Source: a virus
Length of the DNA: 64,000 bases
Virus record (IMG/VR): IMGVR_UViG_3300045988_117852
Location: 75,613 to 139,612 of that record
Strand: one strand, 5' to 3'
Position numbers and translations under genes: made by a program. Below, one piece after another: positions 7,526-51,629 of the stretch. The notes under the pieces are model-generated. The model worked only from the letters and a program-made list of their open reading frames with translations, was not told the origin of the DNA and searched no databases. Numbering within the stretch: position 1 is the stretch's first letter; each line of letters starts with the position of its first letter.

Positions 7526-7583
7526 TACAGCCTGCCCTTGGAAAATCTTGTTTGCAATCATATATAAGAATAGAGGTGAAAAT

Positions 7584-8018: not shown

Positions 8019-8046
8019 TATATATAAAAACGATTAATTTATTGTC

Positions 8047-17925: not shown

Positions 17926-17936
17926 GAGAATTTTGT

Positions 17937-18257: not shown

Positions 18258-18338
18258 TTTTGTTCTATGGTAGCATTATAATAAGAAATGTAGAGATTCT
18301 TTGTTCACAATAAAAATTAACTTTCTTTCTTGCACCTA

Positions 18339-18367
18339 TTGACAGGGTGCAAAAAGTATGGTATATT
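18339..18367 (+). promoter_or_regulatory. Sigma-A-like promoter (TTGACA-17-TATATT) embedded in an inverted repeat TTGCACC…GGTGCAA
   Basis: The -35 hexamer lies in the loop of a 7-bp inverted repeat, a candidate operator, upstream of the MazF-like gene. Confidence 0.45.
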
Positions 18368-18416
18368 TAATTCATGAAAATAACAAATGCAACTGGGGAA
18401 AGTTGAGGGACGTAAA

Positions 18417-18866
18417 ATGAACGGATATACTAACAAAGAAAGAAAAGGAAACGATAACAGAAAAAGAAAAGAATATGTATATGGTAAATATCAAAATCCT
18501 CAAGTTTGGGGAATATATTTTGCAGATTTGCCGAAAATCGAAGGTAGCCATATCTTGCATGGGAAAAGACCAGTTATTGTCTATTCCAATAATATTTGTA
18601 ACAATACGAGCACAGAGATTAACGTGTATCCAATTACAAAAAAATTAAGGAACTGGATACCGACACATGTGACCATTTATCCAAATACCAGTAATGGATT
18701 AAAAATGGTATCACAAGTGTATTTAGAGCAAGGAAGAACAATTCCAAAGAATAATCTTTTAGAGTATTGGGGAAGAATATCTGATCTATCTTTAATGTTA
18801 AAAATAGGACATGGCATTTTAATACAAAACGGCATGTTATCGTACATGAATGCAATGGCATCCTAG
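18417..18866 (+). CDS. MazF/PemK-family endoribonuclease toxin-like protein, with a basic N-terminal extension
   Basis: GIYFADLPKIEGSHILHGKRPVIVYSNN…VYPITKK…SQVYLEQGRTIPKNNL follows the PemK/MazF core pattern (G.I…DL.P..G.E..G.RP..V.S…….P.T……S.V…Q.RTI). Confidence 0.55.
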   Translation: MNGYTNKERKGNDNRKRKEYVYGKYQNPQVWGIYFADLPKIEGSHILHGKRPVIVYSNNICNNTSTEINVYPITKKLRNWIPTHVTIYPNTSNGLKMVSQVYLEQGRTIPKNNLLEYWGRISDLSLMLKIGHGILIQNGMLSYMNAMAS

Positions 18867-18880
18867 AAATGGAGAATATT

Positions 18881-26413: not shown

Positions 26414-26444
26414 TAAAACAGTAATTTAATGGAAGGAGAAAACA

Positions 26445-27035
26445 ATGGACGTTAATAAATTATTGGTTGTCGTCGATATGCAGAATGATTTCATCGACGG
26501 AAGCCTTGGAACCAAAGAAGCACAGGAAATTGTTCCCAAAGTAATTGAGAAAATTAAAAATTTTGATGGCATTATTGTTGCAACAATGGACACACACGAT
26601 GAAAATTATTTATCTACACAGGAAGGAAAGAATCTTCCAGTAAAGCATTGCATCTGCGGAGAAGATGGATGGCGGTTAAATCAAGAGGTAGGAGATGCTT
26701 TATCTAACAATATTTCCGTTGATGATAACAAAGACAAATCTATATTACCAGATGGTATGTACCGTAAAAGCACATTTGGATCATTAGACCTTGCACTTGA
26801 CTGCGAAGATGAATTTGGGATTGGTAATCGACTTCATCCAGAAAATGTGGAAATTACATTAATTGGTTTATGTACAGATATTTGTGTAATCTCCAATGCA
26901 ATGTTATTAAAAGTAGCACTACCAAAAGCAAAGATTATTGTAGATGCTTCCTGCTGTGCAGGAGTGACACCAGAGAGTCATAAGAATGCACTTGAAGCAA
27001 TGAAAATGTGTCAAATTGAAGTAATTAATGAATAA
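26445..27035 (+). CDS. pncA: nicotinamidase / isochorismatase-family cysteine hydrolase (PncA-like)
   Basis: VVVDMQNDF gives the catalytic Asp and LCTDICV the Cys nucleophile; ~196 aa is the usual size. Confidence 0.7.
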   Translation: MDVNKLLVVVDMQNDFIDGSLGTKEAQEIVPKVIEKIKNFDGIIVATMDTHDENYLSTQEGKNLPVKHCICGEDGWRLNQEVGDALSNNISVDDNKDKSILPDGMYRKSTFGSLDLALDCEDEFGIGNRLHPENVEITLIGLCTDICVISNAMLLKVALPKAKIIVDASCCAGVTPESHKNALEAMKMCQIEVINE

Positions 27036-27049
27036 AGGGGTGATAAAGA

Positions 27050-27886
27050 ATGATTAGTATTGGTGGAGTCCCAGTTGTTCCAGAATCTTTTCCAGATGGA
27101 ACGCAAAAAATTGATTTTTCGTTAGGTGCGATATCTCAAGAAATCATAGAAAACAAGACAGCGTATATCACATGGTTATATGAGTCAGATAAAGAGTTGT
27201 TTTCCTTGTTGTGTATTTCTAAAAATATTAAAGAACATTTTCCGTGGTTACAACAAGCATTAGTGATGCCGTATATACCAAATGCAAGATTTGACAGAGT
27301 AAAAGAGCCAAGCGAATGCTTTACATTAAAATATTTTGCAGAAATTATTAATAGTCTTGGATTTGTAAAAGTTATTGTAACTGATCCACATTCCGATGTA
27401 TCTACTGCATTGATTGATCATGTAGAAGTAATCCGTGGAGCATCATATATTACACAAACTTGTAGTAAAGTCCTTAAAGCAGAGTCATCAAGAAATCTTG
27501 TAATTTATTTTCCAGATAGCGGATCACTAAAAAGATATTCTGAATTTGTATCAGATGATTATCCGATTGTCTATGGAATTAAAAATCGTGATTGGAAGAC
27601 AGGAAAAATTCTTGGTATTGAGATTCATGGAGATACAGATAAATTAGATGAGAATACAGCAATTTTAATGATTGATGATATTTGTAGTAAGGGTGGCACA
27701 TTCTACTACGGATCAAAAGAATTAAACAAATACGGTTGTAAAGATATGTATTTGTATGTTACTCACTGTGAAAACACAATTCTTGATGGCGAATTACTAA
27801 AGGAAGATAGTTTGTTTAAAAAAGTGTATACGACACGTAGTATTTTTACCAAAGAGCATGAGAAAGTTGAGGTTATGGAGGGGTAA
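27050..27886 (+). CDS. ribose-phosphate pyrophosphokinase family protein (Prs-like; candidate ADPR-PP synthetase of a phage NAD+ reconstitution pathway)
   Basis: FPDGTQKIDF, MPYIPNARFDR (the Prs PYxxYxRQDR signature) and ILMIDDICSKGGTF (PRPP-binding loop). Confidence 0.65.
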   Translation: MISIGGVPVVPESFPDGTQKIDFSLGAISQEIIENKTAYITWLYESDKELFSLLCISKNIKEHFPWLQQALVMPYIPNARFDRVKEPSECFTLKYFAEIINSLGFVKVIVTDPHSDVSTALIDHVEVIRGASYITQTCSKVLKAESSRNLVIYFPDSGSLKRYSEFVSDDYPIVYGIKNRDWKTGKILGIEIHGDTDKLDENTAILMIDDICSKGGTFYYGSKELNKYGCKDMYLYVTHCENTILDGELLKEDSLFKKVYTTRSIFTKEHEKVEVMEG

Positions 27887-27936
27887 AAATAAGAGACAAA
27901 AGTGATTTAACAGGAAATTATTATGGGAATTGGTTA

Positions 27937-28635
27937 GTGAAAGGATTGTCGAACGAAAAATCCAAAGAAGGAAAGCCTTTATGGATATGTGAATGCCAAT
28001 GTCCTAATAAAACGATCAAACTACATAAACGACATGATTTAACTTCTGGAAAAACAAAATCTTGTGGGTGTATGGCTTCATATTTTAAGAATCAAACTAT
28101 GAAAAAAAATAAAATGAATCGTTATGTTTTTGATGAAGACATGTGTATAATCATTGCCAATAACACTCATAACAAATTTTATATTGATAAAGAAGATTAT
28201 GATTTAATTAAAGATTATATTTGGTATGAAACAGATAGAGGGTATTTGGCTACAACGATTGATCGTAAAACGATATTTCTTCATCGTATGGTTATGCATT
28301 TGTCAATAGATGATGATAGAATTGTCGATCATATTTATCATACCCCAGATGGGAAGAATAGTTTTTACAACAACAGAAAGTCAAATTTAAGAATTACAAC
28401 ACAGGCAAAAAATTGTGCGAATAGAGGACTGAGCAGTAATAATACATCTGGAGTGACAGGAGTATCATGGGATAAAAAATACTGTGTATGGAAGGCTTAT
28501 ATAACTTATAACAAGAAAAGATATTATCTAGGTTCTTATTCAAATATCAATGATGCAATTCAAGCGAGAAGATCAAAGGAAGTTGAATTTTTTGGAGAAT
28601 ATAAATATAAAGAAGCGGAGGAAAAAAATGAGTAA
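27937..28635 (+). CDS. HNH homing endonuclease with AP2-type DNA-binding domain
   Basis: HNH_3-like VDHIYHTPDGKNSFYNNRKSNLRITTQAKN, plus an AP2 module GVSWDKKYCVWKAYITYNKKRYYLGSYSNINDAIQAR. It overlaps the next gene's start by 8 nt. Confidence 0.65.
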   Translation: MKGLSNEKSKEGKPLWICECQCPNKTIKLHKRHDLTSGKTKSCGCMASYFKNQTMKKNKMNRYVFDEDMCIIIANNTHNKFYIDKEDYDLIKDYIWYETDRGYLATTIDRKTIFLHRMVMHLSIDDDRIVDHIYHTPDGKNSFYNNRKSNLRITTQAKNCANRGLSSNNTSGVTGVSWDKKYCVWKAYITYNKKRYYLGSYSNINDAIQARRSKEVEFFGEYKYKEAEEKNE

Positions 28636-30097
28636 TATTTCTTTTATGTTAATGGCAGATACATATAAAAATACAAATCCAGACGCAATGCCTAACGGAT
28701 TATCGAAATTAACTTCATATATCACACCAAGAAAATCAATGTTTAATAACATTAATAAAGTAGTGTTTTTTGGGCTACAAGGATTTATTAAAGAGTTTTT
28801 GATTGATTCAATAAATAATACATTTTTTAATAGAAATAAAGATGAAGTCATAAATGAATATAAAAAATATCTTGATACTCAGATTGGAGCCCAAAGTTAT
28901 AATATCAATAGAATTGAGCAACTATATGATTTAGGATATTTACCAATTGAAATGAAAGCATTACCAGAAGGTTCTCTTGTACCGATGGGGGTTCCGTGTA
29001 TTGAGTTAGTAAATACACACCCTAAGTTTGCATGGGTTGTACAATGGATTGAATGCATGACACAGTCAGAGCTGTATGGAACATGTAATTGGGCTACTAT
29101 GGCTCATGAATATCGAAAACTGGCAAATACCTTTTATGACAAAACTACCGATAATTCTGATCCATCAATGGCTATGGCGGATTTTGGGTTTAGAGGGCTT
29201 GGTGTAAATAATGGGATTAGAGCCAGTAGCTCATGGTTATTGTCTTTTAACAAAACGTCTACGATTCCAGCAATGCAGTATGTTGATAAAATGTATGATG
29301 CAAATTGCGAAAAGAATCATATTGGTATCGGAGCAGTAAGTCTTGAACATGCAACAGTGTGTTGTAATTTGGCAGTTTGTGAAACTGAAGAGAATTTACT
29401 TAGAAGGCTTCTGACAACGGTTTATAAAGATACTTCATTTAGTTATGTGTCAGATAGTTTTGACTATTGGAATCTTATTGATAATATATTACCTAAACTT
29501 AAAAAAGAAATTTTGGAGCATAACGGCAAATTTTTTGTGCGACCTGATAGCGGAGATATAGTAGAAATTTCTGTGCAAACTGTACAAAAACTTTATAAAA
29601 TTTTTGGGGGAAAAATAAATAAAAAAGGATATAAAGAGCTTAATCATAAAATTGGATTAATTTATGGTGATGGTTGCCAGTATGAGAAGATTAAAGAAAT
29701 TTGGACGCAGCTTGAACACCTTGGGTTTGCAGCGAATACAATTTTGTTTGGTGTTGGGGCATTTTCATTCACTGCAATGTCTACAGAAAAAGACGGACTC
29801 GTATGTCTAACGAGAGACACTTTCGGGTTTGCAATGAAGAGCACTGATTGTGTAATAAATGGTAAAGAATATATGATTCAAAAAGATCCTAAGACGGACA
29901 AAACAAAATTAAAAAAGTCACATAAAGGTTTATGCTATATAACCAATGATGATGGTAATTTTGTATGTCATGATGGATATACTTCAGAAAATCTTCCATT
30001 GAATAATCTGCTTGAGACGGTATTTAGAGATGGCAAATTGGTAAAAGAACAGTCATTACAGGAAATTAGAAGAGTTTTAAACGAAGGAGAATTTTAA
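28628..30097 (+). CDS. nicotinamide/nicotinate phosphoribosyltransferase family protein (NAMPT/NadV-like; candidate Namat)
   Basis: LMADTYK at the N-terminus, DFGFRG and IYGDGCQYEKI motifs; ~489 aa, typical for NAMPT. Confidence 0.7.
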   Translation: MSNISFMLMADTYKNTNPDAMPNGLSKLTSYITPRKSMFNNINKVVFFGLQGFIKEFLIDSINNTFFNRNKDEVINEYKKYLDTQIGAQSYNINRIEQLYDLGYLPIEMKALPEGSLVPMGVPCIELVNTHPKFAWVVQWIECMTQSELYGTCNWATMAHEYRKLANTFYDKTTDNSDPSMAMADFGFRGLGVNNGIRASSSWLLSFNKTSTIPAMQYVDKMYDANCEKNHIGIGAVSLEHATVCCNLAVCETEENLLRRLLTTVYKDTSFSYVSDSFDYWNLIDNILPKLKKEILEHNGKFFVRPDSGDIVEISVQTVQKLYKIFGGKINKKGYKELNHKIGLIYGDGCQYEKIKEIWTQLEHLGFAANTILFGVGAFSFTAMSTEKDGLVCLTRDTFGFAMKSTDCVINGKEYMIQKDPKTDKTKLKKSHKGLCYITNDDGNFVCHDGYTSENLPLNNLLETVFRDGKLVKEQSLQEIRRVLNEGEF

Positions 30098-30114
30098 GAG
30101 AGGAGATATAAAAC

Positions 30115-30885
30115 ATGAGTTTTAATGCAGCAGAAACCAAAGACAGATTAGTACAGTGGATTAGAGATTGGTTTAAAGTTAATGGAAGATGGTGTAATGC
30201 CGTTGTAGGAATTTCAGGCGGTAAAGATTCATCAGTTGTCGCTGCCTTATGTGTCGAAGCACTAGGTAAAGATCGAGTTATTGGAATTATGATGCCACAG
30301 GGTGTGCAGAGTGATATTGAGTATTCTCAGATGCTATGTGATCATCTAGGAATTGAACATTACACAGTTAATATTTTTAATGCTTGCAGAGATATTAAAC
30401 ATGAAATCAGAGATGAATTAGGCGGTAAATGGAGTAAACAGAGTGCCACAAATTTACCTGCTCGTATCCGAATGGCTACATTGTATGCTTTTGCACAGAG
30501 TATGAATGGAAGAGTAGCAAATACATGTAATTTATCTGAAGATTGGGTCGGATATGCAACAAGATATGGAGATTCAGCCGGAGATTTTAGTCCATTAAGT
30601 GATCTGACTGTGACAGAAGTTAAAGCAATTGGTAGAGTTCTGGGACTTCCAACAGAGTTAATCGAAAAAACACCTACTGATGGATTATGCGGTAAGACAG
30701 ATGAAGATAATCTTGGATTTACATATGATATGTTAGACGAATATCTGAGAACTGGAGTATGTAAAGATGAAGCAGTGAGACAGATCATTGACGAGATGCA
30801 TGAGAAGAATGTATTTAAACTTGCTCCAATGCCTAAATTTATATCTGGCATGTGGATCGAGGCAGGAATGGAGTTGGATGATTAA
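30115..30885 (+). CDS. nadE: NH3-dependent NAD+ synthetase
   Basis: ISGGKDSSVVAAL PP-loop (SGGxDS); 256 aa, typical NadE size. Confidence 0.7.
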   Translation: MSFNAAETKDRLVQWIRDWFKVNGRWCNAVVGISGGKDSSVVAALCVEALGKDRVIGIMMPQGVQSDIEYSQMLCDHLGIEHYTVNIFNACRDIKHEIRDELGGKWSKQSATNLPARIRMATLYAFAQSMNGRVANTCNLSEDWVGYATRYGDSAGDFSPLSDLTVTEVKAIGRVLGLPTELIEKTPTDGLCGKTDEDNLGFTYDMLDEYLRTGVCKDEAVRQIIDEMHEKNVFKLAPMPKFISGMWIEAGMELDD

Positions 30886-35367: not shown

Positions 35368-35901
35368 ATGAGTACAACAAAAACAATTGATATTTCGAAA
35401 TTATCTGAAGCACAGCAGAATTTATTTAAATCATTATTTGATCAGTTTTGTGAAAGATCGGAACCGAAAGAAGAAACTAATCCATGTGGATTAAATAATG
35501 GGGATACGTATTATTTCATCACTGATGATGGACATATCTGTATGGCAAAATGGCAAAACAGAACTTCAGATTTTAGAAGATTAGCTTTAGGAAATGTATT
35601 TAAGACTGAAAAGGATACAGAGTTTGGTATTGAAAAGCAGAAGGTCAAAGTAGAGCTTGAGCAATACGCAAAAGAACATAATGATCCAGAGAAAGAAGAG
35701 TGGAATGGCATAAATCCACATTATACTATTAGATATGATATTGGAGATGAAGCTTTAGTAAGATCATCAAATCATGTAGTAGAAAATATCAATGATATTT
35801 ATTTCACTTCCGAAGATATTGTTAAAAATGCCGTTGATTATATTGGAGCAAAACGCATCATGAAATATCTATTTGATGTTGATTGTGGGGTGGATGAATG
35901 A
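35368..35901 (+). CDS. hypothetical protein, paralogue of the previous gene
   Basis: Tandem paralogue (see above). Confidence 0.45.
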   Translation: MSTTKTIDISKLSEAQQNLFKSLFDQFCERSEPKEETNPCGLNNGDTYYFITDDGHICMAKWQNRTSDFRRLALGNVFKTEKDTEFGIEKQKVKVELEQYAKEHNDPEKEEWNGINPHYTIRYDIGDEALVRSSNHVVENINDIYFTSEDIVKNAVDYIGAKRIMKYLFDVDCGVDE

Positions 35902-36221
35902 GTACATATAAAATCGGAGAAATCTTAGTATCACAAAGAGAAACAGAAGTTGAAACAATTTTTGGAAGAAAAGAGATAATTCCTAAAGGAAACAAAATTA
36001 TTATTACCGCTCATAGGCTTGGGTATCATATTAGGAACGGCATGAAACAGCCTTTGCAAAAGGATGATGCTGTAAAAGGCTATGACACAGAAGGACTTGC
36101 AGAGTATTTGTTTACGTGTATGAAAAGTCATCTTCCGATGGATGATATGATGTGTGATTATGATTTGACACAAACAGATGTTCAAGAAGTTATTGAAGAA
36201 GCATTGGATGAGATTTTTTAG
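35898..36221 (+). CDS. hypothetical protein
   Basis: ORF with overlapping start/stop. Confidence 0.4.
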   Translation: MSTYKIGEILVSQRETEVETIFGRKEIIPKGNKIIITAHRLGYHIRNGMKQPLQKDDAVKGYDTEGLAEYLFTCMKSHLPMDDMMCDYDLTQTDVQEVIEEALDEIF

Positions 36222-36237
36222 AAGAGGAGGATGAATA

Positions 36238-36702
36238 GTGCTGATAACAATACTTGTAATTACTATAATTGCTTCAATGACCTATTATCATCATGCTAAA
36301 AACAAGGATTACTCCTCTTGTGATCTTGATATTCTTAGTGTTGTATTAATTCTGATTAACTTTGCCATTATCGTACTTTTATGTTCACTACTGAGTAATC
36401 TATATGAAAATCAAGGTGTCAATCAGAAAATCAAAATGTATGAAACACAAAATCGGCAGCTTGAGAGAAAGATTGATGTGACTGTTAAGAGTTACATGAA
36501 TCATGAAAAGGATACATACAAAGAATTTAAAGCTGGTGATGGAATGGCATTGATCACAACATATCCTGAATTAAGAAGCAATGAACTTGTTAAAAAACAG
36601 ATGGATACATACCAAAGCAATAATCGTAAGATTGCAAAATTAAAAGAAAAAGAAATTGATTGCAATGTTACCAAGTGGTGGATTTATTTTGGAGGAGAAT
36701 AA
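36238..36702 (+). CDS. membrane protein (two TM helices) with a coiled-coil tail
   Basis: LITILVITIIASMTY and LSVVLILINFAIIVLLCSLL are hydrophobic helices. Confidence 0.4.
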   Translation: MLITILVITIIASMTYYHHAKNKDYSSCDLDILSVVLILINFAIIVLLCSLLSNLYENQGVNQKIKMYETQNRQLERKIDVTVKSYMNHEKDTYKEFKAGDGMALITTYPELRSNELVKKQMDTYQSNNRKIAKLKEKEIDCNVTKWWIYFGGE

Positions 36703-36704
36703 TT

Positions 36705-36893
36705 ATGAAAGTTTTATATAAAGGTAAGAAGTACAAAGTGTATGGAGTAAGCCCTAGCCCATACACACAAGGTTATTACTATGAAAAGGGTGCAGATTTC
36801 TTAATCTATATAAAAAATAGTTGGGTATGGGTATCTTCTGATTATTGTATACCATATAAAAAGAAAAAACATAAGAAGGAAGAGGGTAAATGA
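36705..36893 (+). CDS. hypothetical small basic protein
   Basis: GGAGGAG RBS before ATG 36705. Confidence 0.35.
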   Translation: MKVLYKGKKYKVYGVSPSPYTQGYYYEKGADFLIYIKNSWVWVSSDYCIPYKKKKHKKEEGK

Positions 36894-36993
36894 TATTAGA
36901 TACGCACTTAGAGATGTTTCGCTATTTGCGCTTACTGACGATACAACCGATGAAGAAAAAATAATATTTACAGTTCAAGGGAGTAAGGCTGAT

Positions 36994-37314
36994 ATGAATT
37001 ATAATCTAACATTTCCTGTCGTAGTTCTAAAAGATGAGAATGACTCAGTTCCATATATGGCATATATCCCATATTTTGACGTAATGACACAGGGATATGA
37101 TGAAGAAGAATTGCAGATGATGGTCAAAGATTTGTTGAATCTCTGCTTAGAAGATAAAGAATCTTATACAATTCCTGCATGGGCATATAGTTATTTCAAT
37201 GAAGACGATGTCAAGGAACGAGGCAGAAAATATTTCACAGAACTTGATGATGGAGACGATACATATTTTCAGAAGAATTTTTACACAGTATGGTGGTTCG
37301 ATTTTAGGAAATAG
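36994..37314 (+). CDS. hypothetical acidic protein
   Basis: ORF. Confidence 0.4.
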   Translation: MNYNLTFPVVVLKDENDSVPYMAYIPYFDVMTQGYDEEELQMMVKDLLNLCLEDKESYTIPAWAYSYFNEDDVKERGRKYFTELDDGDDTYFQKNFYTVWWFDFRK

Positions 37315-37337
37315 TCGTAGAAAAGGAGAAAGATAAA

Positions 37338-37520
37338 ATGGACGTTTTGTTTTACATAATTTGGGTATTAGCGTTTATGGTAATTGCAGCGATCGGCATT
37401 GGAGTACCATACATGACTTATTACAATTACAAAAGAATTAAGGCAATGGATAAGAAACTTACAGGAATGTGTACAGGTCTTGGCATTATGTTAAGACCAG
37501 AAGAAGGTGATGAAGAATGA
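37338..37520 (+). CDS. small membrane protein
   Basis: One TM helix (VLFYIIWVLAFMVIAAIGIGV). Confidence 0.35.
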   Translation: MDVLFYIIWVLAFMVIAAIGIGVPYMTYYNYKRIKAMDKKLTGMCTGLGIMLRPEEGDEE

Positions 37521-37825
37521 AAGATATGAGAAATAATCCCATTGAAAATGGAAATCTGTGTTTTAGATCAAGAATGGTAAATGGAGAAACATTGATTGGA
37601 TATGCATTAGTTATCTCAAACAAGCTGTTTTGGAAAGACGGATGGAATAACTATATTTCTAGTCACGACAAACTTAATTCTAAGCAATTAATTGTCATCG
37701 AACACCTAAATGATAATGAAAAGAAAATGAGAAAAGAGTGGTTAAAGTTCATGGCAACAACAAAATCAAAAAAGGTTAAAGATGCAGACCGAGTAATTGT
37801 GAAAGACTTATTGAGTGAAATATGA
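37517..37825 (+). CDS. hypothetical protein
   Basis: ORF. Confidence 0.4.
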   Translation: MKDMRNNPIENGNLCFRSRMVNGETLIGYALVISNKLFWKDGWNNYISSHDKLNSKQLIVIEHLNDNEKKMRKEWLKFMATTKSKKVKDADRVIVKDLLSEI

Positions 37826-37840
37826 GGTGTAAGGTATTAA

Positions 37841-38008
37841 ATGAGAAGATTAATTTGGTATATCAGGTCTTGTTTCTGTAAACATGATTGGGAACAGATA
37901 TTTAATTCAGATATATATTGGAGCGAGAAATCAACTAAGCCTTATAAGTGTGAAAAGGTTTATCGGTGTAAGAAATGTGGCTGTGAGAAAAGATATGTAA
38001 TAGAGTAA
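37841..38008 (+). CDS. small zinc-ribbon protein (55 aa)
   Basis: CFC…CEKVYRCKKCGCEK; RBS GAGGTG. Under 60 aa, so absent from the ORF track. Confidence 0.3.
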   Translation: MRRLIWYIRSCFCKHDWEQIFNSDIYWSEKSTKPYKCEKVYRCKKCGCEKRYVIE

Positions 38009-38041
38009 AATCTGAGTTTTATGTAAAGTGAGGTGATTAAT

Positions 38042-38362
38042 ATGGGAGCCAATATTGAGTTCGCTATTGGCTATGCGATTGGGTTTTGTATCGTTGGAGT
38101 GATTGTATTTCTGAGATACGAAAGAAAGATGGATCGGATGAGGCAGACAAATGTAAATTTGATCTTAGATAAGATGTCGTTCATGGCTGATGCGAACGAC
38201 AAAGAAAATGGTACATGTAATAAGGAAGAAACTCGTTCAGATGTTAAGGACGCAGTGAAGTATGCAATGAAGAAAAGTCATCCAGATAATGGTGGTAGTG
38301 CAGAGGATTTTCGAAAATTTAGAGAGTTATATGAAGAAATGGAAGGTAAAGGAGTGAAGTAG
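38042..38362 (+). CDS. membrane-anchored J-domain (DnaJ-like) protein
   Basis: TM helix (FAIGYAIGFCIVGVIVFL) and a J-domain HPD motif in YAMKKSHPDNGGSAEDFRKFRELYE. Confidence 0.45.
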   Translation: MGANIEFAIGYAIGFCIVGVIVFLRYERKMDRMRQTNVNLILDKMSFMADANDKENGTCNKEETRSDVKDAVKYAMKKSHPDNGGSAEDFRKFRELYEEMEGKGVK

Positions 38363-38365
38363 TAT

Positions 38366-39973
38366 ATGACAGCTAAAGATAACACAATGGTAATTACTAG
38401 AAAAATCGCTTTGATTCCTGTCGCAAGTGAGCGAAAAGAATGGAAGAAAAGAATCAATTCTTTCTTAGAAAAAGATTTTCCAAGGAAAATTGAAGCAAAG
38501 AAGAAGCAGATCAAGAATACAAGCAAACCAGAAAAGAAAGACGGGTATAAACAGCAGCTCACAGAATTAGAAAAGCAATATGAAGATTTCAAAGAAAATA
38601 GAATCGAAGAATATACTCAGAAAATGGTTAACGATTATACATATGGTCTTGTGAGAGATGCAATGGAGAGCGAAGCAAGACGAAAGAACTACATTTTGTC
38701 TTACATATACACAAAAATGGTACAGGATGGAGTTGGATATATGCCAACATTGAAAGATAAATATACATGGATTAAAGAAAATATTAATGTTGCATATAGA
38801 CGAAAAGGAAGTAATAAAGGAAGCATCTTTGATGATGTTGACATTGACAATCCATTAGGTGGATACGGAACATGTTTCTCTCAGATATTAACAAGCAAGA
38901 TCAAAGATTTGGTTAAACAGGGATTGTTAGACGGCAAAGTGTCAATTCCGAATTTTAAAATTGACTCACCGTTTACAATTGCAAAAGCGTATTTTGATCT
39001 ATATCACGAATATGAAGATATAACAGAATTAAAGAAAAATATTCAAAATTCTGATTGTAAATTGTATTGTGGATTAGGTAACAAAGGTATTCCGACCATT
39101 GCAAATTTCAAAGTAAATATTGGACACAAAGGAAATAGAGATGAGTTGATTTCTACATTGTTAAGAATATTTACTGGAGAATACGAGATTTGTGGAAGTA
39201 CAATGCAGATTTCTAAAACAAAAATTATTTTAAATTTATCAATTAGAATTCCTAAAACACAACTTGAATTAGATGAGGACACTGTAGTTGGTGTCGATCT
39301 TGGAGTTGCAATTCCAGCGGTATGTTCTTTGAATAATAACAAATATAAGAGAGAGTATATTGGTAGTAGTGACGATTTTATTAGAATGAGAACGAAATTA
39401 CAGCATGAGAAACAGCAGTTACAGAAAGCGTTAAAAATGTCAAAAGGCGGACATGGAAGAAAAAGAAAGTTGTTGGCATTAGAAAGATGTAAAAAGAAAG
39501 AATATAACTTTGTTGAAACATACTGTCACAAAGTAAGCAAGAAAGTGGTTGATTTTGCGGTCAAGAATAAAGCGAAATATATCAATGTAGAAAATCTTTC
39601 GGGATATGATTCAAGTAAATTCATTTTAAGAAATTGGAGTTTTTATAAACTTCAGCAATACATAGAATATAAAGCTGCAAAATATGGCATTGAAGTTAGA
39701 AAAGTAAATCCTTCATTTACATCTCAAGTGTGTAGTTTCTGCGGACATTGGGAAGACGGGCAGAGAAAAGATCAAGCAACATTTGTTTGTGGTAATCCTG
39801 ATTGTGAAAGTCATAAGTTGCATATGGTAAATGCAGACTACAATGCATCAAGAAATATTGCGATGTCAACATTATTTACAAGTGATAAATTTCAATTTTG
39901 TAAAAAGACAATGCAAGATGCGGCTGAGTATTACGGTATTCAATTAGATAATGAAGATCAATTAGCAGCGTAA
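38366..39973 (+). CDS. TnpB/Cas12-like RNA-guided-nuclease-family protein (RuvC split domain plus zinc finger), 535 aa
   Basis: RuvC-I VGVDLGV, RuvC-II …YINVENL…, OrfB Zn-ribbon CSFCGH…CGNPDC, RuvC-III NADYNASRNIA. The N-terminus MVITRKIALIP resembles the TnpB start. There is no upstream left-end/TnpA. Confidence 0.7.
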   Translation: MTAKDNTMVITRKIALIPVASERKEWKKRINSFLEKDFPRKIEAKKKQIKNTSKPEKKDGYKQQLTELEKQYEDFKENRIEEYTQKMVNDYTYGLVRDAMESEARRKNYILSYIYTKMVQDGVGYMPTLKDKYTWIKENINVAYRRKGSNKGSIFDDVDIDNPLGGYGTCFSQILTSKIKDLVKQGLLDGKVSIPNFKIDSPFTIAKAYFDLYHEYEDITELKKNIQNSDCKLYCGLGNKGIPTIANFKVNIGHKGNRDELISTLLRIFTGEYEICGSTMQISKTKIILNLSIRIPKTQLELDEDTVVGVDLGVAIPAVCSLNNNKYKREYIGSSDDFIRMRTKLQHEKQQLQKALKMSKGGHGRKRKLLALERCKKKEYNFVETYCHKVSKKVVDFAVKNKAKYINVENLSGYDSSKFILRNWSFYKLQQYIEYKAAKYGIEVRKVNPSFTSQVCSFCGHWEDGQRKDQATFVCGNPDCESHKLHMVNADYNASRNIAMSTLFTSDKFQFCKKTMQDAAEYYGIQLDNEDQLAA

Positions 39974-40001
39974 ATTATATGAAAATATATGGCATGTTTT
40001 G

Positions 40002-40042
40002 GAGGGAGTTCGATGCTCCCTCAGCCATAAAATAATATGGCT
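40002..40042 (+). ncRNA. two adjacent perfect hairpins (GAGGGAG-N7-CTCCCTC and AGCCATA-N6-TATGGCT) directly 3' of the nuclease gene; a candidate guide-RNA scaffold element or terminator
   Basis: Read directly. No U-tract follows them, and they sit at the start of the first repeated unit. Confidence 0.35.
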
Positions 40043-40135
40043 ATGCCAAGAGATAGGAAAATTTTTCACTCACTAAAATTTGTGTAATTGAACAGAACGT
40101 AAAGTTCTGCATTGTATACATAATAAAGATTTGAG

Positions 40136-40237
40136 GTTTGAGAATTATTGAAAATTACACAGATACAAAACCATTCCCTGTATGCATAAGCACAATCCCA
40201 TGTTTGAGAACTATTGAAAATTACATAAAATGTATGG
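40136..40237 (+). CRISPR. CRISPR-like mini-array 1: 36-nt repeat, 30-nt spacer, degenerate terminal repeat
   Basis: Repeat GTTTGAGAATTATTGAAAATTACACAGATACAAAAC (40136-40171). Spacer CATTCCCTGTATGCATAAGCACAATCCCAT (40172-40201). The second copy from 40202 matches 24/25 nt, then diverges. Confidence 0.55.
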
Positions 40238-40375
40238 CATGTTTTGAGAAATTTTATATCCAATGTAAATTTTCTGATCATAAGAAATATGATTATGCCA
40301 AAAGTGAGATTTAAAAATAATACTCACTAAAACCTATGTGATAAAGTATCAAAATTGGACAAGGATGAAATTGAG

Positions 40376-40543
40376 GTTTGATACCTATTAAAAATTACAT
40401 AGGTACAAAACATGTTTTGATCTTCAGCACCTGATACAAAGTTTGATACCTATTAAAAATTACATAGGTACAAAACACAATCGGCATCCGATCTTTTCGC
40501 TGCCTGAGTTTGATACCTATTAAAAATTACACAAAGTGTGTGG
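40376..40543 (+). CRISPR. CRISPR-like mini-array 2: two identical 36-nt repeats, 29- and 31-nt spacers, degenerate third repeat
   Basis: Repeat GTTTGATACCTATTAAAAATTACATAGGTACAAAAC at 40376-40411 and 40441-40476. Unique spacers at 40412-40440 and 40477-40507. The third copy from 40508 matches 25 nt, then diverges. Confidence 0.65.
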
Positions 40544-40642
40544 TGTGTTCTGGAGATTTTATCTCGTCTATCAAATAGGTAGATACGCCAAAAGTGAGAC
40601 ATGAATGTACTCACTAAAATCTATGTTAGTTGAATATTTGAG

Positions 40643-40732
40643 GTTTAAGACCTATCAAATTTAACACAGGTACAGAACTCTGACGTGCTTCATTTTATTC
40701 GATCGTGCGTAAAAGACCTATCAAATTTAACA
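40643..40732 (+). CRISPR. CRISPR-like mini-array 3: 36-nt repeat, 30-nt spacer, degenerate terminal repeat
   Basis: Repeat GTTTAAGACCTATCAAATTTAACACAGGTACAGAAC (40643-40678). Spacer TCTGACGTGCTTCATTTTATTCGATCGTGC (40679-40708). Partial repeat at 40709-40732. Confidence 0.5.
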
Positions 40733-40757
40733 AAATCAAAAGGAAATTAAACGAAAA

Positions 40758-40925
40758 ATGAAATCAAGACAGCAACGTGAACAGGAAATAAAACGATTCT
40801 TTGATCGGCTGAGTCCCAGTGAATTGGACAGGCTGTTAGAAAGAAATGGAATTAATGATAAAGAGTCTGATGAGGCTCTTGCATATAGAATTATTAAAGA
40901 AGAAATTGAGAAAGGAGAGATATAA
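40758..40925 (+). CDS. hypothetical small protein (55 aa)
   Basis: ATG 40758 to stop 40923-25, overlapping the next start (ATAATG). Under 60 aa. Confidence 0.3.
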   Translation: MKSRQQREQEIKRFFDRLSPSELDRLLERNGINDKESDEALAYRIIKEEIEKGEI

Positions 40926-41230
40926 TGAACAACTTCTTATATATTGAATCACGGGAAGAAGAGAATACATCCCTCGATTCTAAACGTGTTTTATTGAATG
41001 AAGAAAATTACAAACATATTATTTCATCATTAGATCATTATCCACCGACGGCAGACGAAGTTAAGAAAGCAATTTGTATTTTGACTGGACGATTGATCTA
41101 CAGAAGCGTTTGGAATATGGAATCTGATATTGATAGTTTAAATATGAGTTTATCACCGCCAAAAGAAATGACGGTTGCAGAAATTGAAAAGGAACTTGGT
41201 TATAAAGTTAAGATTGTAAAGGAGAAATAA
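40925..41230 (+). CDS. hypothetical protein
   Basis: GGAGAG RBS. Confidence 0.4.
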   Translation: MNNFLYIESREEENTSLDSKRVLLNEENYKHIISSLDHYPPTADEVKKAICILTGRLIYRSVWNMESDIDSLNMSLSPPKEMTVAEIEKELGYKVKIVKEK

Positions 41231-41541
41231 TGCCAATGGCAAAAAAGAAACAAGGAATGTCGTTTGAAATGATGATGCAAAATATGGAAATTAATCCAAG
41301 GCAATTGTATCGTCGTAGTTCGTGGAAGAAGACACGAACAACTTATGATTATGTGTTTATGATGTGCGAAGAAGAATTAAATGAGATTATTCCATTTGAT
41401 AAAAAATATAAAATGAAACCACTCTTATGTAGAGACCAAAATGGAGTTATAACATTGGGATGGTTGCCTACACAAGAGGATATTTTCGCAAATGATTGGG
41501 TTGAGCAAGGATGGGATTTTAACAGTAAAAGGAAGAGGTGA
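41230..41541 (+). CDS. hypothetical protein
   Basis: ORF, translationally coupled to the previous gene. Confidence 0.4.
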   Translation: MPMAKKKQGMSFEMMMQNMEINPRQLYRRSSWKKTRTTYDYVFMMCEEELNEIIPFDKKYKMKPLLCRDQNGVITLGWLPTQEDIFANDWVEQGWDFNSKRKR

Positions 41542-41549
41542 ATAATTAA

Positions 41550-41849
41550 TTGAATTTTATAAAAGCAATGATCGCAATAAAAAAAGACAAAACTACTATA
41601 AGAAGAGGCATTTGGGGAAAGGAAAAGTATTTGAAAATTTATTCGTCAGAATTAACTAATGTTTATTTTGAGTGTAATGATATGGGTGAATATAAGCCAG
41701 ATTCAATTATTTTTTTATTTGATAAAGAAAACGCAGAAGTTTGGATACCTCTTGCGGAAGATGTATATGCAGATGACTGGGAAATATATGTTGAATCGGT
41801 TAAAAAGCCAAATCAATCAAAAGCAAAGGTGAAGGAGAAAGAAGAATGA
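41550..41849 (+). CDS. hypothetical protein (TTG start as called)
   Basis: GAGGTG lies 9 nt upstream of TTG 41550. Confidence 0.35.
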   Translation: MNFIKAMIAIKKDKTTIRRGIWGKEKYLKIYSSELTNVYFECNDMGEYKPDSIIFLFDKENAEVWIPLAEDVYADDWEIYVESVKKPNQSKAKVKEKEE

Positions 41850-42259
41850 AAGTGTTTTTAGGCGGAACATGCTCTGGATGGAAGTGGAGAGACCAGCTAC
41901 AGAAGATGTTGGATTGTGATTATTATAATCCAATCGTAAAAAATTGGAGTGAAGAAGACCGACTGCGGGAAGTCAAGGAAAGAGAAGAATCTGACTATGT
42001 TCTGTATGGCATTACGAATGGTATTAAAGGAGTATACAGTATTGCAGAAGTAGTTGATGATTCTCATAAGCGACCAGATAAAGTGATCTTTCTTAATCTC
42101 TATCAGGAACAAAAGAATAAAGAATCTAAGCAGATGAGCCACAGTTTAAAAGCAGTCGAAAATTTATTGAAAGAAAATCGTATTAAAGTATATTCTGGCG
42201 TACATGCTATGCAGGATGTTGCAGATTTTCTTAACTTAATGAATAAACGAAAGGGGTAA
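41846..42259 (+). CDS. nucleoside 2-deoxyribosyltransferase-like protein
   Basis: VFLGGTCSG near the N-terminus and a DYVLYGI…G core are consistent with the Nuc_deoxyrib_tr fold. Weaker match than the 46464 paralogue. Confidence 0.35.
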   Translation: MKVFLGGTCSGWKWRDQLQKMLDCDYYNPIVKNWSEEDRLREVKEREESDYVLYGITNGIKGVYSIAEVVDDSHKRPDKVIFLNLYQEQKNKESKQMSHSLKAVENLLKENRIKVYSGVHAMQDVADFLNLMNKRKG

Positions 42260-42265
42260 AGAAGA

Positions 42266-43219
42266 ATGAAATGTTTTTATCATGTTGATCAGGACGGCAT
42301 CGTATCTGGTTTCTATGTCAGAAAAGCTTGCGAACAGCGAGGTTTAGAGTTTAAACCAGAAGACTTCCGAAAAATTAATTACGGCATGAAATTCCCGTTT
42401 CATGACATTGAGCAGGATGAATTTGTGTTTATTGTAGACTACAGTATTGAGCCAGAAGAGATGTGGCAGTTGCTCAGTATTACAAAGAATGTATTTTGGA
42501 TCGACCATCATCAGTCTACGATTGAAGCGTATAAAGATTTCAAGTGTGATGTAAAAGGAATCAGAATTACTGGAGCGGGTATTTCAGGAGCGAATTTGAC
42601 ATGGTTATATTTTAAATATATGTGTGATGAAAATTGGGAGCAAATTGAGAGGACGGATGAGAAAAATGTAAAAAGATTACTCAATATATATAAATATAAA
42701 GCAGATTATCCAAAACTGGCAGAATATACAGCCATGTGGGATACATTTTATTTTGGTGAAACGTCAAAACAATTCGTAAAAGCATTTCACTATGCATTTG
42801 AATCGTATGATTTTGATGCGTTAAGTCCATTGCTAAACACGTTAAATAAAGATCAAGGAATTTATGAAGCAGCAAAAATTATTGGTGATATGATAGCAGA
42901 TGGCTTATCAATTATTGAGTATTTAGCAGCAAATGCAGAACAATATCTTAGAGCATATGGTTTTGAAACCATATTTGAGGGACATAAAGTCTATGCAATC
43001 AACCGAGCATTAATCAATTATGATTTCTTTGAATCTATTGATGCTTCTAAATATGATATGTTCATTGGTTTTTCGTTCAATGGAAGTATGTGGGAATATC
43101 AGTTGCGATCCGCAGAACAGGATAAAGTAAATGTGTATGAGCTTGCTGTGAAATATGGTGGCGGTGGTCATCCAAATGCAGCTGGGTTCAGAAGTGATAA
43201 GTATGTGTTAGGAGTGTGA
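42266..43219 (+). CDS. DHH-DHHA1 phosphoesterase (NrnA-like nanoRNase / pAp phosphatase family)
   Basis: DHH motifs HVDQDG, FIVDYS and WIDHHQ, plus the DHHA1 GGGGHPNAAGF signature near the C-terminus. Confidence 0.65.
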   Translation: MKCFYHVDQDGIVSGFYVRKACEQRGLEFKPEDFRKINYGMKFPFHDIEQDEFVFIVDYSIEPEEMWQLLSITKNVFWIDHHQSTIEAYKDFKCDVKGIRITGAGISGANLTWLYFKYMCDENWEQIERTDEKNVKRLLNIYKYKADYPKLAEYTAMWDTFYFGETSKQFVKAFHYAFESYDFDALSPLLNTLNKDQGIYEAAKIIGDMIADGLSIIEYLAANAEQYLRAYGFETIFEGHKVYAINRALINYDFFESIDASKYDMFIGFSFNGSMWEYQLRSAEQDKVNVYELAVKYGGGGHPNAAGFRSDKYVLGV

Positions 43220-43222
43220 TGT

Positions 43223-44008
43223 ATGTCAAGGAAAAATACAAGAGAATTTGAACTTGCTTTTAGTAAACATAGAGACCCAGATTGGGAAGCCGATGTAGAG
43301 ATTTATGGAAAAAGGGTTTTAAAAACAGTACGTGGTATTTGTCTTGGTGATGAATGGACAGAAATTAATTCATTGAGAAACAAGGATCATATTGAGTTAG
43401 CGGAGATGTTTTGTAATTTTGACGATCATAATCCACATTTTAATCTGAGCCCTCAATATGTTTTATTGGATAAGTTTTCTATAACATCTCCTGCGATATT
43501 GTGTAGTGATGAAATAGTTATGAAAAATGGCAAAGTTTTGAATGTTGATAATATATCAGCAAATCTATCAGGCAAAAATGAAGTATACAAGATTTATTCA
43601 AATACAAAATATGATGATTATACATATTATGATGAATCAGAAAATTTAGTATTTGAATTAGCATCAAAAGATGTTGATAAGATAATCCGATTTATGAGAG
43701 ATTTTATGGATGAATTACGTGATGCTAAATTAACAAAGTATAGAAATAGTAATTTTTTATGGAGACTATTTAACACTCTTGATATGCCACATTTTAAACA
43801 AACATATTCCATGAATGATTTGAAAAAATATACAAACACATTTAGATCTGAGGTTTGTGGTCAACTAAAAGAAACTATTCCTAATTTTAAATATACTGGA
43901 GTTCCAATGGGCGGGTATATTGAAAGATATTTTGAATTAAGTTATGTAGAGGAAGTACAAAAATTCATTAAAGAACAGGAGGCAAAGAGATGTGAAGAAA
44001 CTAAATGA
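43223..44008 (+). CDS. hypothetical protein (261 aa)
   Basis: ORF. Confidence 0.45.
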   Translation: MSRKNTREFELAFSKHRDPDWEADVEIYGKRVLKTVRGICLGDEWTEINSLRNKDHIELAEMFCNFDDHNPHFNLSPQYVLLDKFSITSPAILCSDEIVMKNGKVLNVDNISANLSGKNEVYKIYSNTKYDDYTYYDESENLVFELASKDVDKIIRFMRDFMDELRDAKLTKYRNSNFLWRLFNTLDMPHFKQTYSMNDLKKYTNTFRSEVCGQLKETIPNFKYTGVPMGGYIERYFELSYVEEVQKFIKEQEAKRCEETK

Positions 44009-44525
44009 TGAACAGCGAAGGCTGATTGAAGATAATTACTCTTTGATTTGGCATTTACATGAAAAATATTTTACAAAGTTTACAGATTTTGATACATATA
44101 TGGATCTTGGTCGTATGGCAATTTGTAAAGCAGCATTAAAATGGGACGAGTCTAAAGGAACTTTTGGTACATATCTCTTCTGGGTATTACGTTCAGAAGT
44201 GAATCAATATTATACAAAATGGCACAGACTAACAGAAAAAATGAATAGGAATGCTGAATCGTTAGATACACCATTGGCAGGATACGAACCAGAAGATGAT
44301 ATTACAATCGGAACAACACTGATGAGTAAAGATAATGTAGAGGATGAGGTGCTTACAAAGGTACATTTTCAAAATGAGTTTGATAAATTGGCACCGAGAA
44401 ATAAAAAGATTATCACGTTAAAGCAGAAAGGTTTAACACAAAGACAAATTGCAAGTCAGCTTGGAATCACTCATCAGTGGGTTAGTCAAAATATTGTACA
44501 GTTTAAGAAAGCATTATGTGGATAA
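43992..44525 (+). CDS. sigma-70-family RNA polymerase sigma factor
   Basis: Region-2-like …YMDLGRMAICKAALKWDESKG.FGTYLFWVLRSEV and region-4 HTH LTQRQIASQLGITHQWVSQNI. GTG start as called. Confidence 0.6.
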   Translation: MKKLNDEQRRLIEDNYSLIWHLHEKYFTKFTDFDTYMDLGRMAICKAALKWDESKGTFGTYLFWVLRSEVNQYYTKWHRLTEKMNRNAESLDTPLAGYEPEDDITIGTTLMSKDNVEDEVLTKVHFQNEFDKLAPRNKKIITLKQKGLTQRQIASQLGITHQWVSQNIVQFKKALCG

Positions 44526-50850: not shown

Positions 50851-50879
50851 CACATAAACACAAGTAAATAAAGGAGAAA

Positions 50880-51419
50880 ATGTCGTTGAAATTAAATGAC
50901 GAACAGAGAAAATTGGTAGAACAAAATCATAATTTGATTTACTCTGCTATGACAAAATGCGGTATCCGCAGACAAGATTTTGATGACTATTATGGATTCG
51001 CTGCCATTGGGTTGTGTAAGGCAGCAATTGATTATGATGAATCCAAAGCTAAATCATTCTCTACATATGCATATAAATGTATGCAAAAAGAAATTATAGC
51101 ATATACTCGATGGAGATTTGCAGATAAAAGAGATGAACGACTTACCTTATCGTACAATCAGTTAATGAATGATTTAGATGAAGACGAAAAAGAATATTCT
51201 TTTTTGTTAGCTGATAAAAAAAATAATGAAAAAAAATTAATTTTCTTTTTGTGTTTTGATGAGCAAATGCGAATACTAAATAATAAGGACAGGTTAATTA
51301 TTAATTTAAAGGCAAAAGGGTATACGAACGAAGAAATAGGAAATACCCTTGGTGTTACATATCAAGCAATTCAATATCAATTGAAAAAAATTAAAAATAA
51401 ATTAATCCCATCCTTATAA
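50880..51419 (+). CDS. sigma-70-family RNA polymerase sigma factor (second copy)
   Basis: Region-2 YGFAAIGLCKAAIDYDESKAKSFSTYAYKCM and region-4 HTH YTNEEIGNTLGVTYQAIQYQL. Same architecture as 43992..44525. Confidence 0.6.
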   Translation: MSLKLNDEQRKLVEQNHNLIYSAMTKCGIRRQDFDDYYGFAAIGLCKAAIDYDESKAKSFSTYAYKCMQKEIIAYTRWRFADKRDERLTLSYNQLMNDLDEDEKEYSFLLADKKNNEKKLIFFLCFDEQMRILNNKDRLIINLKAKGYTNEEIGNTLGVTYQAIQYQLKKIKNKLIPSL

Positions 51420-51629
51420 TTTCAAAAAAGCTTTTTGCTTTTATTATTTTTTTGACGCATTTGTTATAAACGTACTAGAACGATTATAGCAATGTAAGAC
51501 GATCAGATAAAATTATTTTTTTGTTCCTGTTGGCTTTGGCAGAGTTGACAGTGGATATAAATTGATGACTTATTCACAAACTAAAAACTAACTAAACAAA
51601 TTTAATAACAAGAGGAGGAATTCTATTTA

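Follow-up and report, generated by a model that had tools for sequence, protein, structure and literature searches.

Three probable modular guide-RNA cassettes beside a phage-encoded, type V-F-like Cas12f nuclease gene

The DNA analysed here, hereafter the window, is a stretch of 64,000 nucleotides (nt) from the IMG/VR virus record IMGVR_UViG_3300045988_117852 (positions 75,613 to 139,612 of that record). Just 3′ of a gene for a Cas12f-like RNA-guided nuclease, it carries three + strand cassettes (39990–40225, 40235–40531 and 40541–40732), each consisting of a 102–146-nt scaffold followed by a mini-array of 36-nt CRISPR repeats. We consider it highly probable that the region comprises three modular guide-RNA genes serving this adjacent phage-encoded nuclease. 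Judged from sequence by its protein, its array, its anti-repeat and its RNA core, the system is of type V-F-like CRISPR–Cas12f.

All elements of the cassettes lie on the + strand. In cassette 1, a scaffold resembling a trans-activating CRISPR RNA (tracrRNA; 39990–40135) holds the two strands of helix P1 (39990–39995/40043–40048), a pseudoknot strand (39996–40001), an anti-repeat (40078–40087) and the junction motif ATTTGAG (40129–40135), and leads into a repeat (40136–40171), spacer S1 (40172–40201) and a truncated terminal repeat (40202–40225); positions 40155–40164 of the repeat pair with the anti-repeat and 40166–40171 with the pseudoknot strand. The scaffold of cassette 2 (40235–40375) is built from P1 (40235–40240/40295–40300), the pseudoknot strand (40241–40246), helix P4 (40303–40308/40323–40328), the anti-repeat (40332–40341) and the junction AATTGAG (40369–40375), and its array runs through a repeat (40376–40411), spacer S2a (40412–40440), a second repeat (40441–40476) and spacer S2b (40477–40507) to the truncated repeat (40508–40531). 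Cassette 3 repeats the plan with compensatory pairs at two sites, TGGTGT/ACGCCA in P1 (40541–40546/40585–40590) and GTTCTG/CAGAAC in the pseudoknot (scaffold strand 40547–40552); the rest of its scaffold (40541–40642) holds P4 (40593–40598/40610–40615), the anti-repeat (40619–40628) and ATTTGAG (40636–40642), followed by a repeat (40643–40678), spacer S3 (40679–40708) and a truncated repeat (40709–40732). The arrays hold 1, 2 and 1 spacers, respectively, of 29–31 nt, and in every one the terminal repeat is reduced to its first 24 nt.

A preliminary description of this DNA had noted three diverged units with the same ordered blocks before each array, and these are indeed present in each: TGGCATG/TGGTGTG, GTTTTG/GTTCTG, ATGCCAA/ACGCCAA, AGTGAGA...ACTCACTAAAA, CTATGT/TTGTGT and the junction TTTGAG/GTTT. 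Similarity extends beyond the repeats, with leader-only global alignments among the three units scoring 26–36 against 8.7–12.3 ± 2.6–2.9 (maximum 25) in shuffles. The unit identity of 70–80% given in that description stands over aligned positions of the leaders (78–82%) and does not stand over all alignment columns including gaps, where it is 49–54%, with a mean column identity of 66%. The repeats themselves differ between units, as had been noted, with 26–30 of 36 positions identical.

Covariation supports an RNA that is matched to its repeat, and with it the earlier proposal of scaffold-plus-guide cassettes rather than one long array. We examined 46 distinct scaffold and first-repeat units, drawn from the window and from 14 related loci with nucleases of 63–100% identity, against a 39-pair structure read from the sequences. 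Its elements are P1 (UGGCAU/AUGCCA), two hairpins inside P1, P4 (AGUGAG/CUCACU), a 10-bp anti-repeat:repeat helix joining scaffold AYCUAUGUNA to repeat UNACAUAGGU, and a 6-bp pseudoknot linking scaffold bases 7–12 to the final six repeat bases. Standard pairs fill 99.2% of 1793 cells, compared with 89.2% in shuffles and 31–50% when partners are slid by 1–3 columns, and double-sided, compensatory changes occur at 17 of the 39 pairs; the covariation score of 0.402 compares with 0.192 in shuffles and was reached by none of 500. The anti-repeat helix is 99.6% paired with three compensatory pairs, P1 is 100% paired with three, and the pseudoknot is 99.3% paired with two. Pseudoknot strands change in step (GUUUUG/CAAAAC, GUUCUG/CAGAAC in window cassette 3, and GUUUCG/CGAAAC), as do those of P1 (UGGCAU/AUGCCA, UGGUGU/ACGCCA, UGGCAC/GUGCCA and UGGUGU/ACACCA). 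From the alignment alone, RNAalifold recovered the same nested helices, with 15 of 32 pairs compensatory. Single-sequence folds are more stable than shuffles for cassettes 1 and 2 (z of −3.9 and −4.3) and more weakly so for cassette 3 (z of −1.4), and the fold of cassette 2 contains both the anti-repeat:repeat and the pseudoknot pairings. Cognate scaffold:repeat combinations form 15.9 of 16 pairs on average, against 14.4 of 16 for non-cognate combinations within one phage; on these grounds the scaffolds are classed as tracrRNA-like, each fitting its own repeat best.

The gene adjoining the cassettes (38366–39973, + strand) encodes a protein of 535 amino acids that matches the Pfam families PF07282 (Cas12f1-like TNB, E 2.4e-19) and PF01385 (OrfB_IS605) and the NCBIfam family guided_TnpB (E 5.6e-48). 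The closest solved structure is 8hr5 (E 4.7e-66), whose database label reads only ‘Transposase’ and which we take to be CnCas12f1. Next to it stands Al3Cas12f (9nzo/9nzr, E 3.5e-65; PMC13186708). The RuvC residues D311, E409 and D491 and the four zinc-site cysteines (CxxC..CxxC) are invariant in an alignment of 15 homologues of 52–67% identity, and D491 comes with the NADxNA motif; because of this invariance the nuclease should be catalytically intact, and we predict it to be active. The phage-encoded Cas12p ‘hacker’ family, considered as an alternative home for the protein, was rejected, with matches only at E 2.8e-4 (bioRxiv 10.1101/2025.01.20.633832). Distant homologues in Bacteroidota genome loci (L110–L169) align only to about residue 444, short of RuvC-III; their genera include Chryseobacterium, Sphingobacterium, Flagellimonas and Paenimyroides, among others, some of which have published nuclease-dead Cas12f-sigmaE systems (PMC12259090).

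The multi-cassette layout is a trait of the whole phage family, not a local accident. We built a covariance model from the scaffold/repeat alignment and ran it on the window and 78 related loci, 77 of them viral. It matched the window at exactly three places, the three cassettes (39990–40171, 141.4 bits; 40235–40411, 144.4 bits; 40541–40678, 132.8 bits), and gave 191 matches overall, all on the nuclease strand and 1–6 per locus; nearly all of the roughly 80 viral loci thus surveyed have such cassettes beside the nuclease gene. Cassettes often lie both 5′ and 3′ of that gene, and their number reaches six in L032 and in L039. Most of the cassettes examined comprise a scaffold followed by 36-nt repeats with 1–4 spacers of about 30 nt, the array parser having returned none for some; scaffold and first repeat invariably share a strand, the scaffold lying 15–70 nt 5′ of the repeat. 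The locus keeps its position in related phages, with the same neighbouring genes on either side. The carrier is a phage of roughly 150–170 kb, its closest relatives being IMG/VR viral contigs of 150–166 kb; a blastn search of INPHARED with the locus as query returned nothing. Since two model matches each also lie near nuclease homologues of the isolates Clostridium sp. AF37-5 and Roseburia sp. 1XD42-69, the distribution suggests Clostridia/Lachnospiraceae hosts.

Cassettes fall into types that are ordered differently among phages: 1-5-4 in the window, L001 and L002; 1-2-3 in L004 and L012–L018; and 1-6-7-4 in L006, L020 and L041. Cassettes of the same type are 79–86% identical across phages whose nucleases are only 63–68% identical, which exceeds the 49–54% between types within the window, and because of this the types are best read as old modular paralogues, combined differently among phages. 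The serial duplication envisaged in the preliminary description, taken as recent copying, does not survive this comparison. One cassette (cassette 2 of L019, 4479–4633) joins a type-6-like GTTTCG scaffold to a type-4-like repeat ending in CAGAAC, with one pseudoknot mismatch; it looks recombinant and as such would be evidence of cassette shuffling by recombination.

The arrays appear to be live. Phages with 97–100% identical nucleases keep their scaffolds and carry different spacers, and S1 differs in every closest relative. In a densely sampled subgroup, scaffold-distal spacers are shared and additions stand at the scaffold-proximal end, as in the series [s5,s6], [s12,s5,s6], [s11,s12,s5,s6] and the series [s31,s32], [s4,s31,s32], [s3,s4,s31,s32]; read from the arrays, such polarity marks integrase-mediated acquisition at the leader end. 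Turnover seems to be fastest in cassette 1. S1 (40172–40201) was absent from the viral and metagenome collections; spacers of cassettes 2 and 3 recur in IMGVR_UViG_3300045988_134824 and in L172, an ENA contig of 2 kb. When IMG/VR was scanned for exact 24-nt matches to the four window spacers, nothing but the arrays of a sister phage came up, and 51 pooled clade spacers had no match in INPHARED. Two side observations concern repeated spacers: in L056 (1971–2168), spacer s16 stands twice in succession within one array, suggesting duplication by repeat recombination besides acquisition, and in L007 one spacer sequence is present twice 5′ of the nuclease gene (2789–2818 and 2892–2921).

Two protospacers were found. 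S2b (40477–40507) matches the metagenome contigs L170 and L171 at 30 of 31 positions, with the mismatch at position 27 and the 5′ flank TTCG; L170 is plasmid-like, because it encodes ParA, a replication initiator (Rep), an Arc-like repressor, an invertase and an HNH nuclease. A spacer of L041 (4655–4684) matches, on the antisense strand, the Cas12f gene of a sister clade (L004, L012–L018 and L070, about 3672–3701 in locus coordinates) at 28–29 of 30 positions with a 5′ TTTG flank, against only 21 of 30 and a TTGG flank in the Cas12f gene of L041 itself; these phages appear to aim CRISPR at each other's CRISPR nuclease. Both protospacers fit a T-rich 5′ protospacer-adjacent motif (PAM) and a role in conflict between mobile elements. 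Self-targeting or autoregulation, with cassette-2 spacers directed at the nuclease gene, was considered and rejected, the partial complementarity being at chance level; the best window matches of the four spacers cover 18–21 of 29–31 positions, equal to those of shuffled spacers.

The boundary at which new spacers appear resembles that of another CRISPR type. The seven bases before the first repeat read ATTTGAG in 71 of 149 distinct cassettes and differ from it by at most one mismatch in 110, and positions −7 to −1 are conserved at 73–93% compared with about 40–48% further upstream. The family consensus repeat is GTTTTAGAACTATATAAAATTACATAGGTACAAAAC; repeats are 36 nt long with G first and C last, running G...AAAAC, and their middle varies freely between cassette types. 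The ends of the consensus presumably resemble those of the Streptococcus pyogenes repeat, which we take as a lead only. The combination of ATTTGAG/GTTT and 36-nt repeats is that of the group-1 type II-A leader–repeat junction, for which the first repeat together with the final 10 leader bases reportedly suffices for the integration of spacers (PMC5382924). Among + strand open reading frames (ORFs) of at least 90 amino acids in the window, none had a Pfam match to cas1, cas2, cas4, csn2 or cas9. Together these observations suggest that the arrays are loaded by an adaptation module of II-A type encoded elsewhere.

More tentatively, the whole could be a hybrid system in which II-A adaptation (Cas1–Cas2–Csn2, with or without Cas9, from the Clostridia host or from elsewhere in the phage) loads spacers for a V-F effector, in the form of portable promoter–scaffold–array modules shuffled between phages; in these modules, a stage on the path from dual-RNA Cas12f to tandem single guide RNAs would survive today. 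This reading draws on scaffolds that end in the II-A anchoring motif ATTTGAG/GTTT, on spacer gain at that junction next to no nearby adaptation gene, and on repeats that keep II-A length and termini with middles that co-evolve with a Cas12f scaffold; we hold it to be possible and, in this full form, rather unlikely.

In the mechanism that we infer, which extends to per-cassette promoters, use in cis or in trans, RNA processing, cleavage and the supplier of the integrase, each cassette would encode a tracrRNA-like scaffold on the same strand as, and directly 5′ of, its own mini-array. The scaffold, composed of the closing helix P1, its two internal hairpins and hairpin P4, would grip the 3′ half of its cognate repeat through the 10-bp anti-repeat:repeat helix and the 6-bp pseudoknot. 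Because the 3′ half of the repeat is held through these two contacts, the spacer would emerge as a 3′ guide, with the topology of Cas12f single-guide RNAs and TnpB omega-RNA. The short distance from scaffold to repeat makes pairing with the first repeat in cis possible, giving a natural single guide, and further repeats would be served in trans. The truncated terminal repeat would close the array, since exactly the scaffold-pairing segment is missing from it. The loaded nuclease would then cut competing plasmids and rival phages beside a 5′ TTYG-type PAM, and new spacers would enter at the scaffold–repeat junction bearing ATTTGAG/GTTT.

Several observations weigh against assigning the cassettes to Cas12f guide-RNA genes. 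The sequences behind the 1793 pairing cells are kin, and counted by cell the independent events appear more numerous than they are, an effect mitigated by the presence of seven cassette types and by the slid-partner control. Helix P4 of cassette 1 has two non-standard pairs in the window copy, and the anti-repeat helix of cassette 3 has one C·A mismatch; L001 and L002 have T at the latter site, where the helix is fully paired. Cross-pairing between cassettes costs just 1–4 of 16 pairs, so the cassettes are not clearly orthogonal; strict orthogonality was tried and rejected, non-cognate combinations still forming 12–16 of 16 pairs, and with so small a cognate advantage scaffolds might be used across cassettes. 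A scan of 37500–41500 with Rfam at E ≤ 1 matched no family, and because of this the homology to characterized tracrRNAs is one of architecture rather than of a model match. Targets were identified in spacer scans for none of the other three window spacers, and the candidate T-rich 5′ PAM comes from only two flanks, TTTG and TTCG. Promoter-like matches 5′ of 133 cassettes are only modestly enriched over random positions, and a scan for terminators between the window cassettes found none; because of these two results, we infer rather than observe that each cassette is transcribed on its own.

The clearest promoter candidate is a sigma-70-like match (TTGAGA-16-TAAAAT, 10 of 12 positions, 40204–40231, + strand) that spans the truncated repeat of cassette 1 and would start transcription near TGGCATG of cassette 2. 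An A/T-rich, TAAAAT-like element a few bases 5′ of the TGG start is common in the family. The window also encodes an ORF with a Sigma-70 region 2 match (about 50868–51420, E 2.9e-8) and one that looks sigma-factor-like by eye, with no reported match (about 43950–44525); with phage-encoded sigma factors, the cassette promoters could be of other than host sigma-70 type.

Other accounts of the same region fare worse. The leaders might be mere array leaders or promoters, or decayed repeat–spacer units, of three ordinary arrays whose tracrRNA, if any, lies elsewhere, and they are AT-rich, have promoter-like hexamers nearby and end in ATTTGAG, a known DNA-level leader motif. Yet covariation with the final six repeat bases is not expected of a leader that acts only as DNA, whereas here the helices inside the scaffold, and those that join it to the repeat, stay paired through 17 double changes; nor was a further anti-repeat found in the window, where the model matches only the three sites. 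We regard this account as very improbable. The likeness to TnpB omega-RNA drawn in the preliminary description holds only for the topology, in which the scaffold is 5′, the guide 3′ and the pseudoknot adjacent to the guide; the nuclease cores are homologous, the protein matching TnpB models. It was said there that the first leader begins at the nuclease stop codon; the scaffold starts just past it, at 39990, 17 nt beyond the TAA (39971–39973) and outside the ORF. Scaffold and ORF do not overlap, the same scaffold starts recur with no ORF upstream (cassettes 2 and 3), and relatives have cassettes 5′ of the gene too. The locus is unlike IS200/IS605 elements in that neither transposon ends nor TnpA are present and it occupies a constant site between the same neighbours in related phages. 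The guides are exchangeable CRISPR spacers bounded by 36-nt repeats, variable and gained directionally; true repeat–spacer–repeat arrays that gain spacers at the leader end behave as CRISPR rather than as TnpB. Least credible of the accounts considered is that a TnpB-type transposon, or what is left of one, encodes the cassettes as omega-RNAs, the transposon ends setting their guides.

A further alternative takes the II-A features at face value: the mini-arrays would mainly exploit or jam a host type II-A system, as Cas9 substrates or RNA decoys, with Cas12f secondary. Mini-arrays in viruses that draw on the effectors of the host have been described (PMC11656645), and the ATTTGAG/GTTT junction, 36-nt G-first repeats ending A-rich and then C (G...AAAAC), spacers of about 30 nt and leader-proximal gain are all as in group-1 type II-A (PMC5382924). 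Every locus, however, has a Cas12f gene and every cassette a scaffold that covaries with its repeat; this RNA partner is of Cas12f type and pairs with the 3′ half of the repeat, while the central part of the repeat, with which a Cas9 tracrRNA would pair, differs freely from one cassette type to the next. Unlike type II-A loci, the window has no match to cas9, cas1, cas2 or csn2 among its + strand ORFs of at least 90 amino acids, and a T-rich flank lies 5′ of both protospacers, in keeping with Cas12f, where Cas9 would have its PAM on the 3′ side. We judge a mainly host-directed role improbable. Compatible with, and part of, the reading of the cassettes as Cas12f guide-RNA genes is a narrower model in which scaffold and first repeat stay linked in one RNA as natural covalent single guides, making the system an intermediate between dual-RNA Cas12f and the tandem single guide RNAs of nuclease-dead Cas12f-sigmaE. 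The constant strand and spacing of the scaffold relative to the first repeat favour it, as do single-sequence folds that place anti-repeat and pseudoknot on the cis repeat, the predominance of arrays with just 1–2 spacers, and the proposed origin of the tandem dCas12f guides from a tracrRNA fused to half a repeat (PMC10691335, PMC12259090). Against it, arrays of 2–4 spacers exist, whose distal spacers need a scaffold in trans or alternative cis pairing, and the retention of full 36-nt repeats and polarized acquisition means that no fusion has occurred at the DNA level. We give this model a substantial chance, somewhat short of even.

Type V-F effectors work as an asymmetric homodimer on one guide RNA and recognize a 5′ PAM that is T-rich or C-rich. 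Published Cas12f guide RNAs comprise stem 1, a pseudoknot, side stems, a repeat:anti-repeat stem and a 3′ guide, an organization shared with the TnpB guide RNA (PMC12255294). Like the type V-F1 systems (Cas14a/Un1Cas12f1, AsCas12f1, SpCas12f1, CnCas12f1 and Al3Cas12f), the present one pairs a small TnpB-like nuclease bearing RuvC and a zinc ribbon, within the range of about 400–700 amino acids, with an array that adjoins the effector gene and a tracrRNA (here a predicted one) encoded between the two; the core of stem 1, pseudoknot and repeat:anti-repeat helix is also alike (PMC12255294), a likeness of architecture rather than of models compared directly with each other. Type V-F1 further has a T-rich 5′ PAM (PMC13186708) and phage and plasmid targets (PMC10691335). 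Three features appear to separate the system from described V-F loci. Where those have one tracrRNA and one array, an arrangement that is customary without being diagnostic of the type, there are three complete tracrRNA-plus-mini-array cassettes here and 1–6 in relatives, often on both sides of the gene, with several co-varying scaffold/repeat pairs per nuclease gene. The repeat termini and leader junction are II-A-like, unlike the other Cas12f arrays that we inspected in bacterial loci, which have neither the ATTTGAG junction nor these repeat ends. The third is the phage carrier. In a literature that for subscription articles was covered incompletely, we found no description of multiple tracrRNAs or tandem tracrRNA–array units, either for Cas12f or for phages.

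Among described layouts, the nearest is that of the nuclease-dead Cas12f-sigmaE systems (‘omega-RNA arrays’), which also place several tandem scaffold-plus-guide units beside a Cas12f-family gene and whose tandem guide RNAs are proposed to have arisen from a tracrRNA brought beside a minimized array (PMC10691335, PMC12259090). Proteins of this type appear among the distant matches of the window nuclease that end at about residue 444. These systems lack RuvC-III, are linked to rpoE and use fused guide RNAs of 85–105 nt with 14–16-nt guides and no repeats, whereas the window nuclease keeps D311, E409 and D491 and its arrays keep repeats and still gain spacers; the nearest Pfam Sigma70 match in the window lies near 50.9 kb. 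Membership in Cas12f-sigmaE was rejected, the nuclease being intact, with the RuvC-III residue D491 present and repeats kept. There is also a likeness to virus-borne mini-arrays in inter-virus conflict, with 1–4 spacers and at least one family spacer that targets a close phage (PMC11656645). Those arrays rely on a host effector and on repeats copied from the host (PMC11656645), whereas here the phage would supply both the effector and a scaffold for each array.

One nuclease with several diverged scaffold/repeat pairs would amount to a natural experiment, separating positions that the protein reads from positions that need only to pair, and could directly help in the design of compact editors and of guides that are multiplexed or orthogonal. 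As phage weaponry, the guide modules would act against plasmids and against the Cas12f genes of rival phages, beside anti-defence genes. The layout stands between canonical tracrRNA-plus-array loci and the exapted tandem single guide RNAs of dCas12f, and so offers a testable evolutionary intermediate. If the II-A junction is functional, spacer acquisition would cross CRISPR types, which would explain how phage arrays that lack cas1 and cas2 stay current.

The window, with about 33% G+C and all genes on one strand, is part of a large phage's early/replication region; its predicted products include a DnaB-like helicase, an exonuclease resembling RecJ, a DNA polymerase and a nicotinamide phosphoribosyltransferase (NAMPT). 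Pfam matches on the ORFs adjacent to the locus (35368–44008) were limited to a weak nucleoside deoxyribosyltransferase-like match and two Tad2-like (Thoeris anti-defence 2) domains, the latter in genes at 41230–41541 (E 3.8e-8) and 41550–41849 (E 1.3e-11). Because these two genes lie just 3′ of the cassettes, the Cas12f locus is placed, on sequence evidence, in a counter-defence neighbourhood; Tad2-like neighbours are also present in L006. In L007, a 55%-identical relative, the Cas12f locus adjoins a GmrSD-like gene and a methyltransferase (181–2479). Elsewhere in the window, an isochorismatase/nicotinamidase-like ORF, the nicotinamide phosphoribosyltransferase (28550–30097, PHROG E 5e-150) and then another enzyme-sized ORF (together 26430–30885) may form a module for salvage or regeneration of nicotinamide adenine dinucleotide (NAD+); phages use such modules against NAD-depleting defences. 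Further mobile-element or conflict genes lie at 16217–18870, 7506–8020 and 58888–60162: an ORF of the tyrosine integrase family, a metallophosphatase, a toxin resembling PemK/MazF, a HicB-like antitoxin and, just 5′ of the DNA polymerase gene, a LAGLIDADG homing endonuclease.

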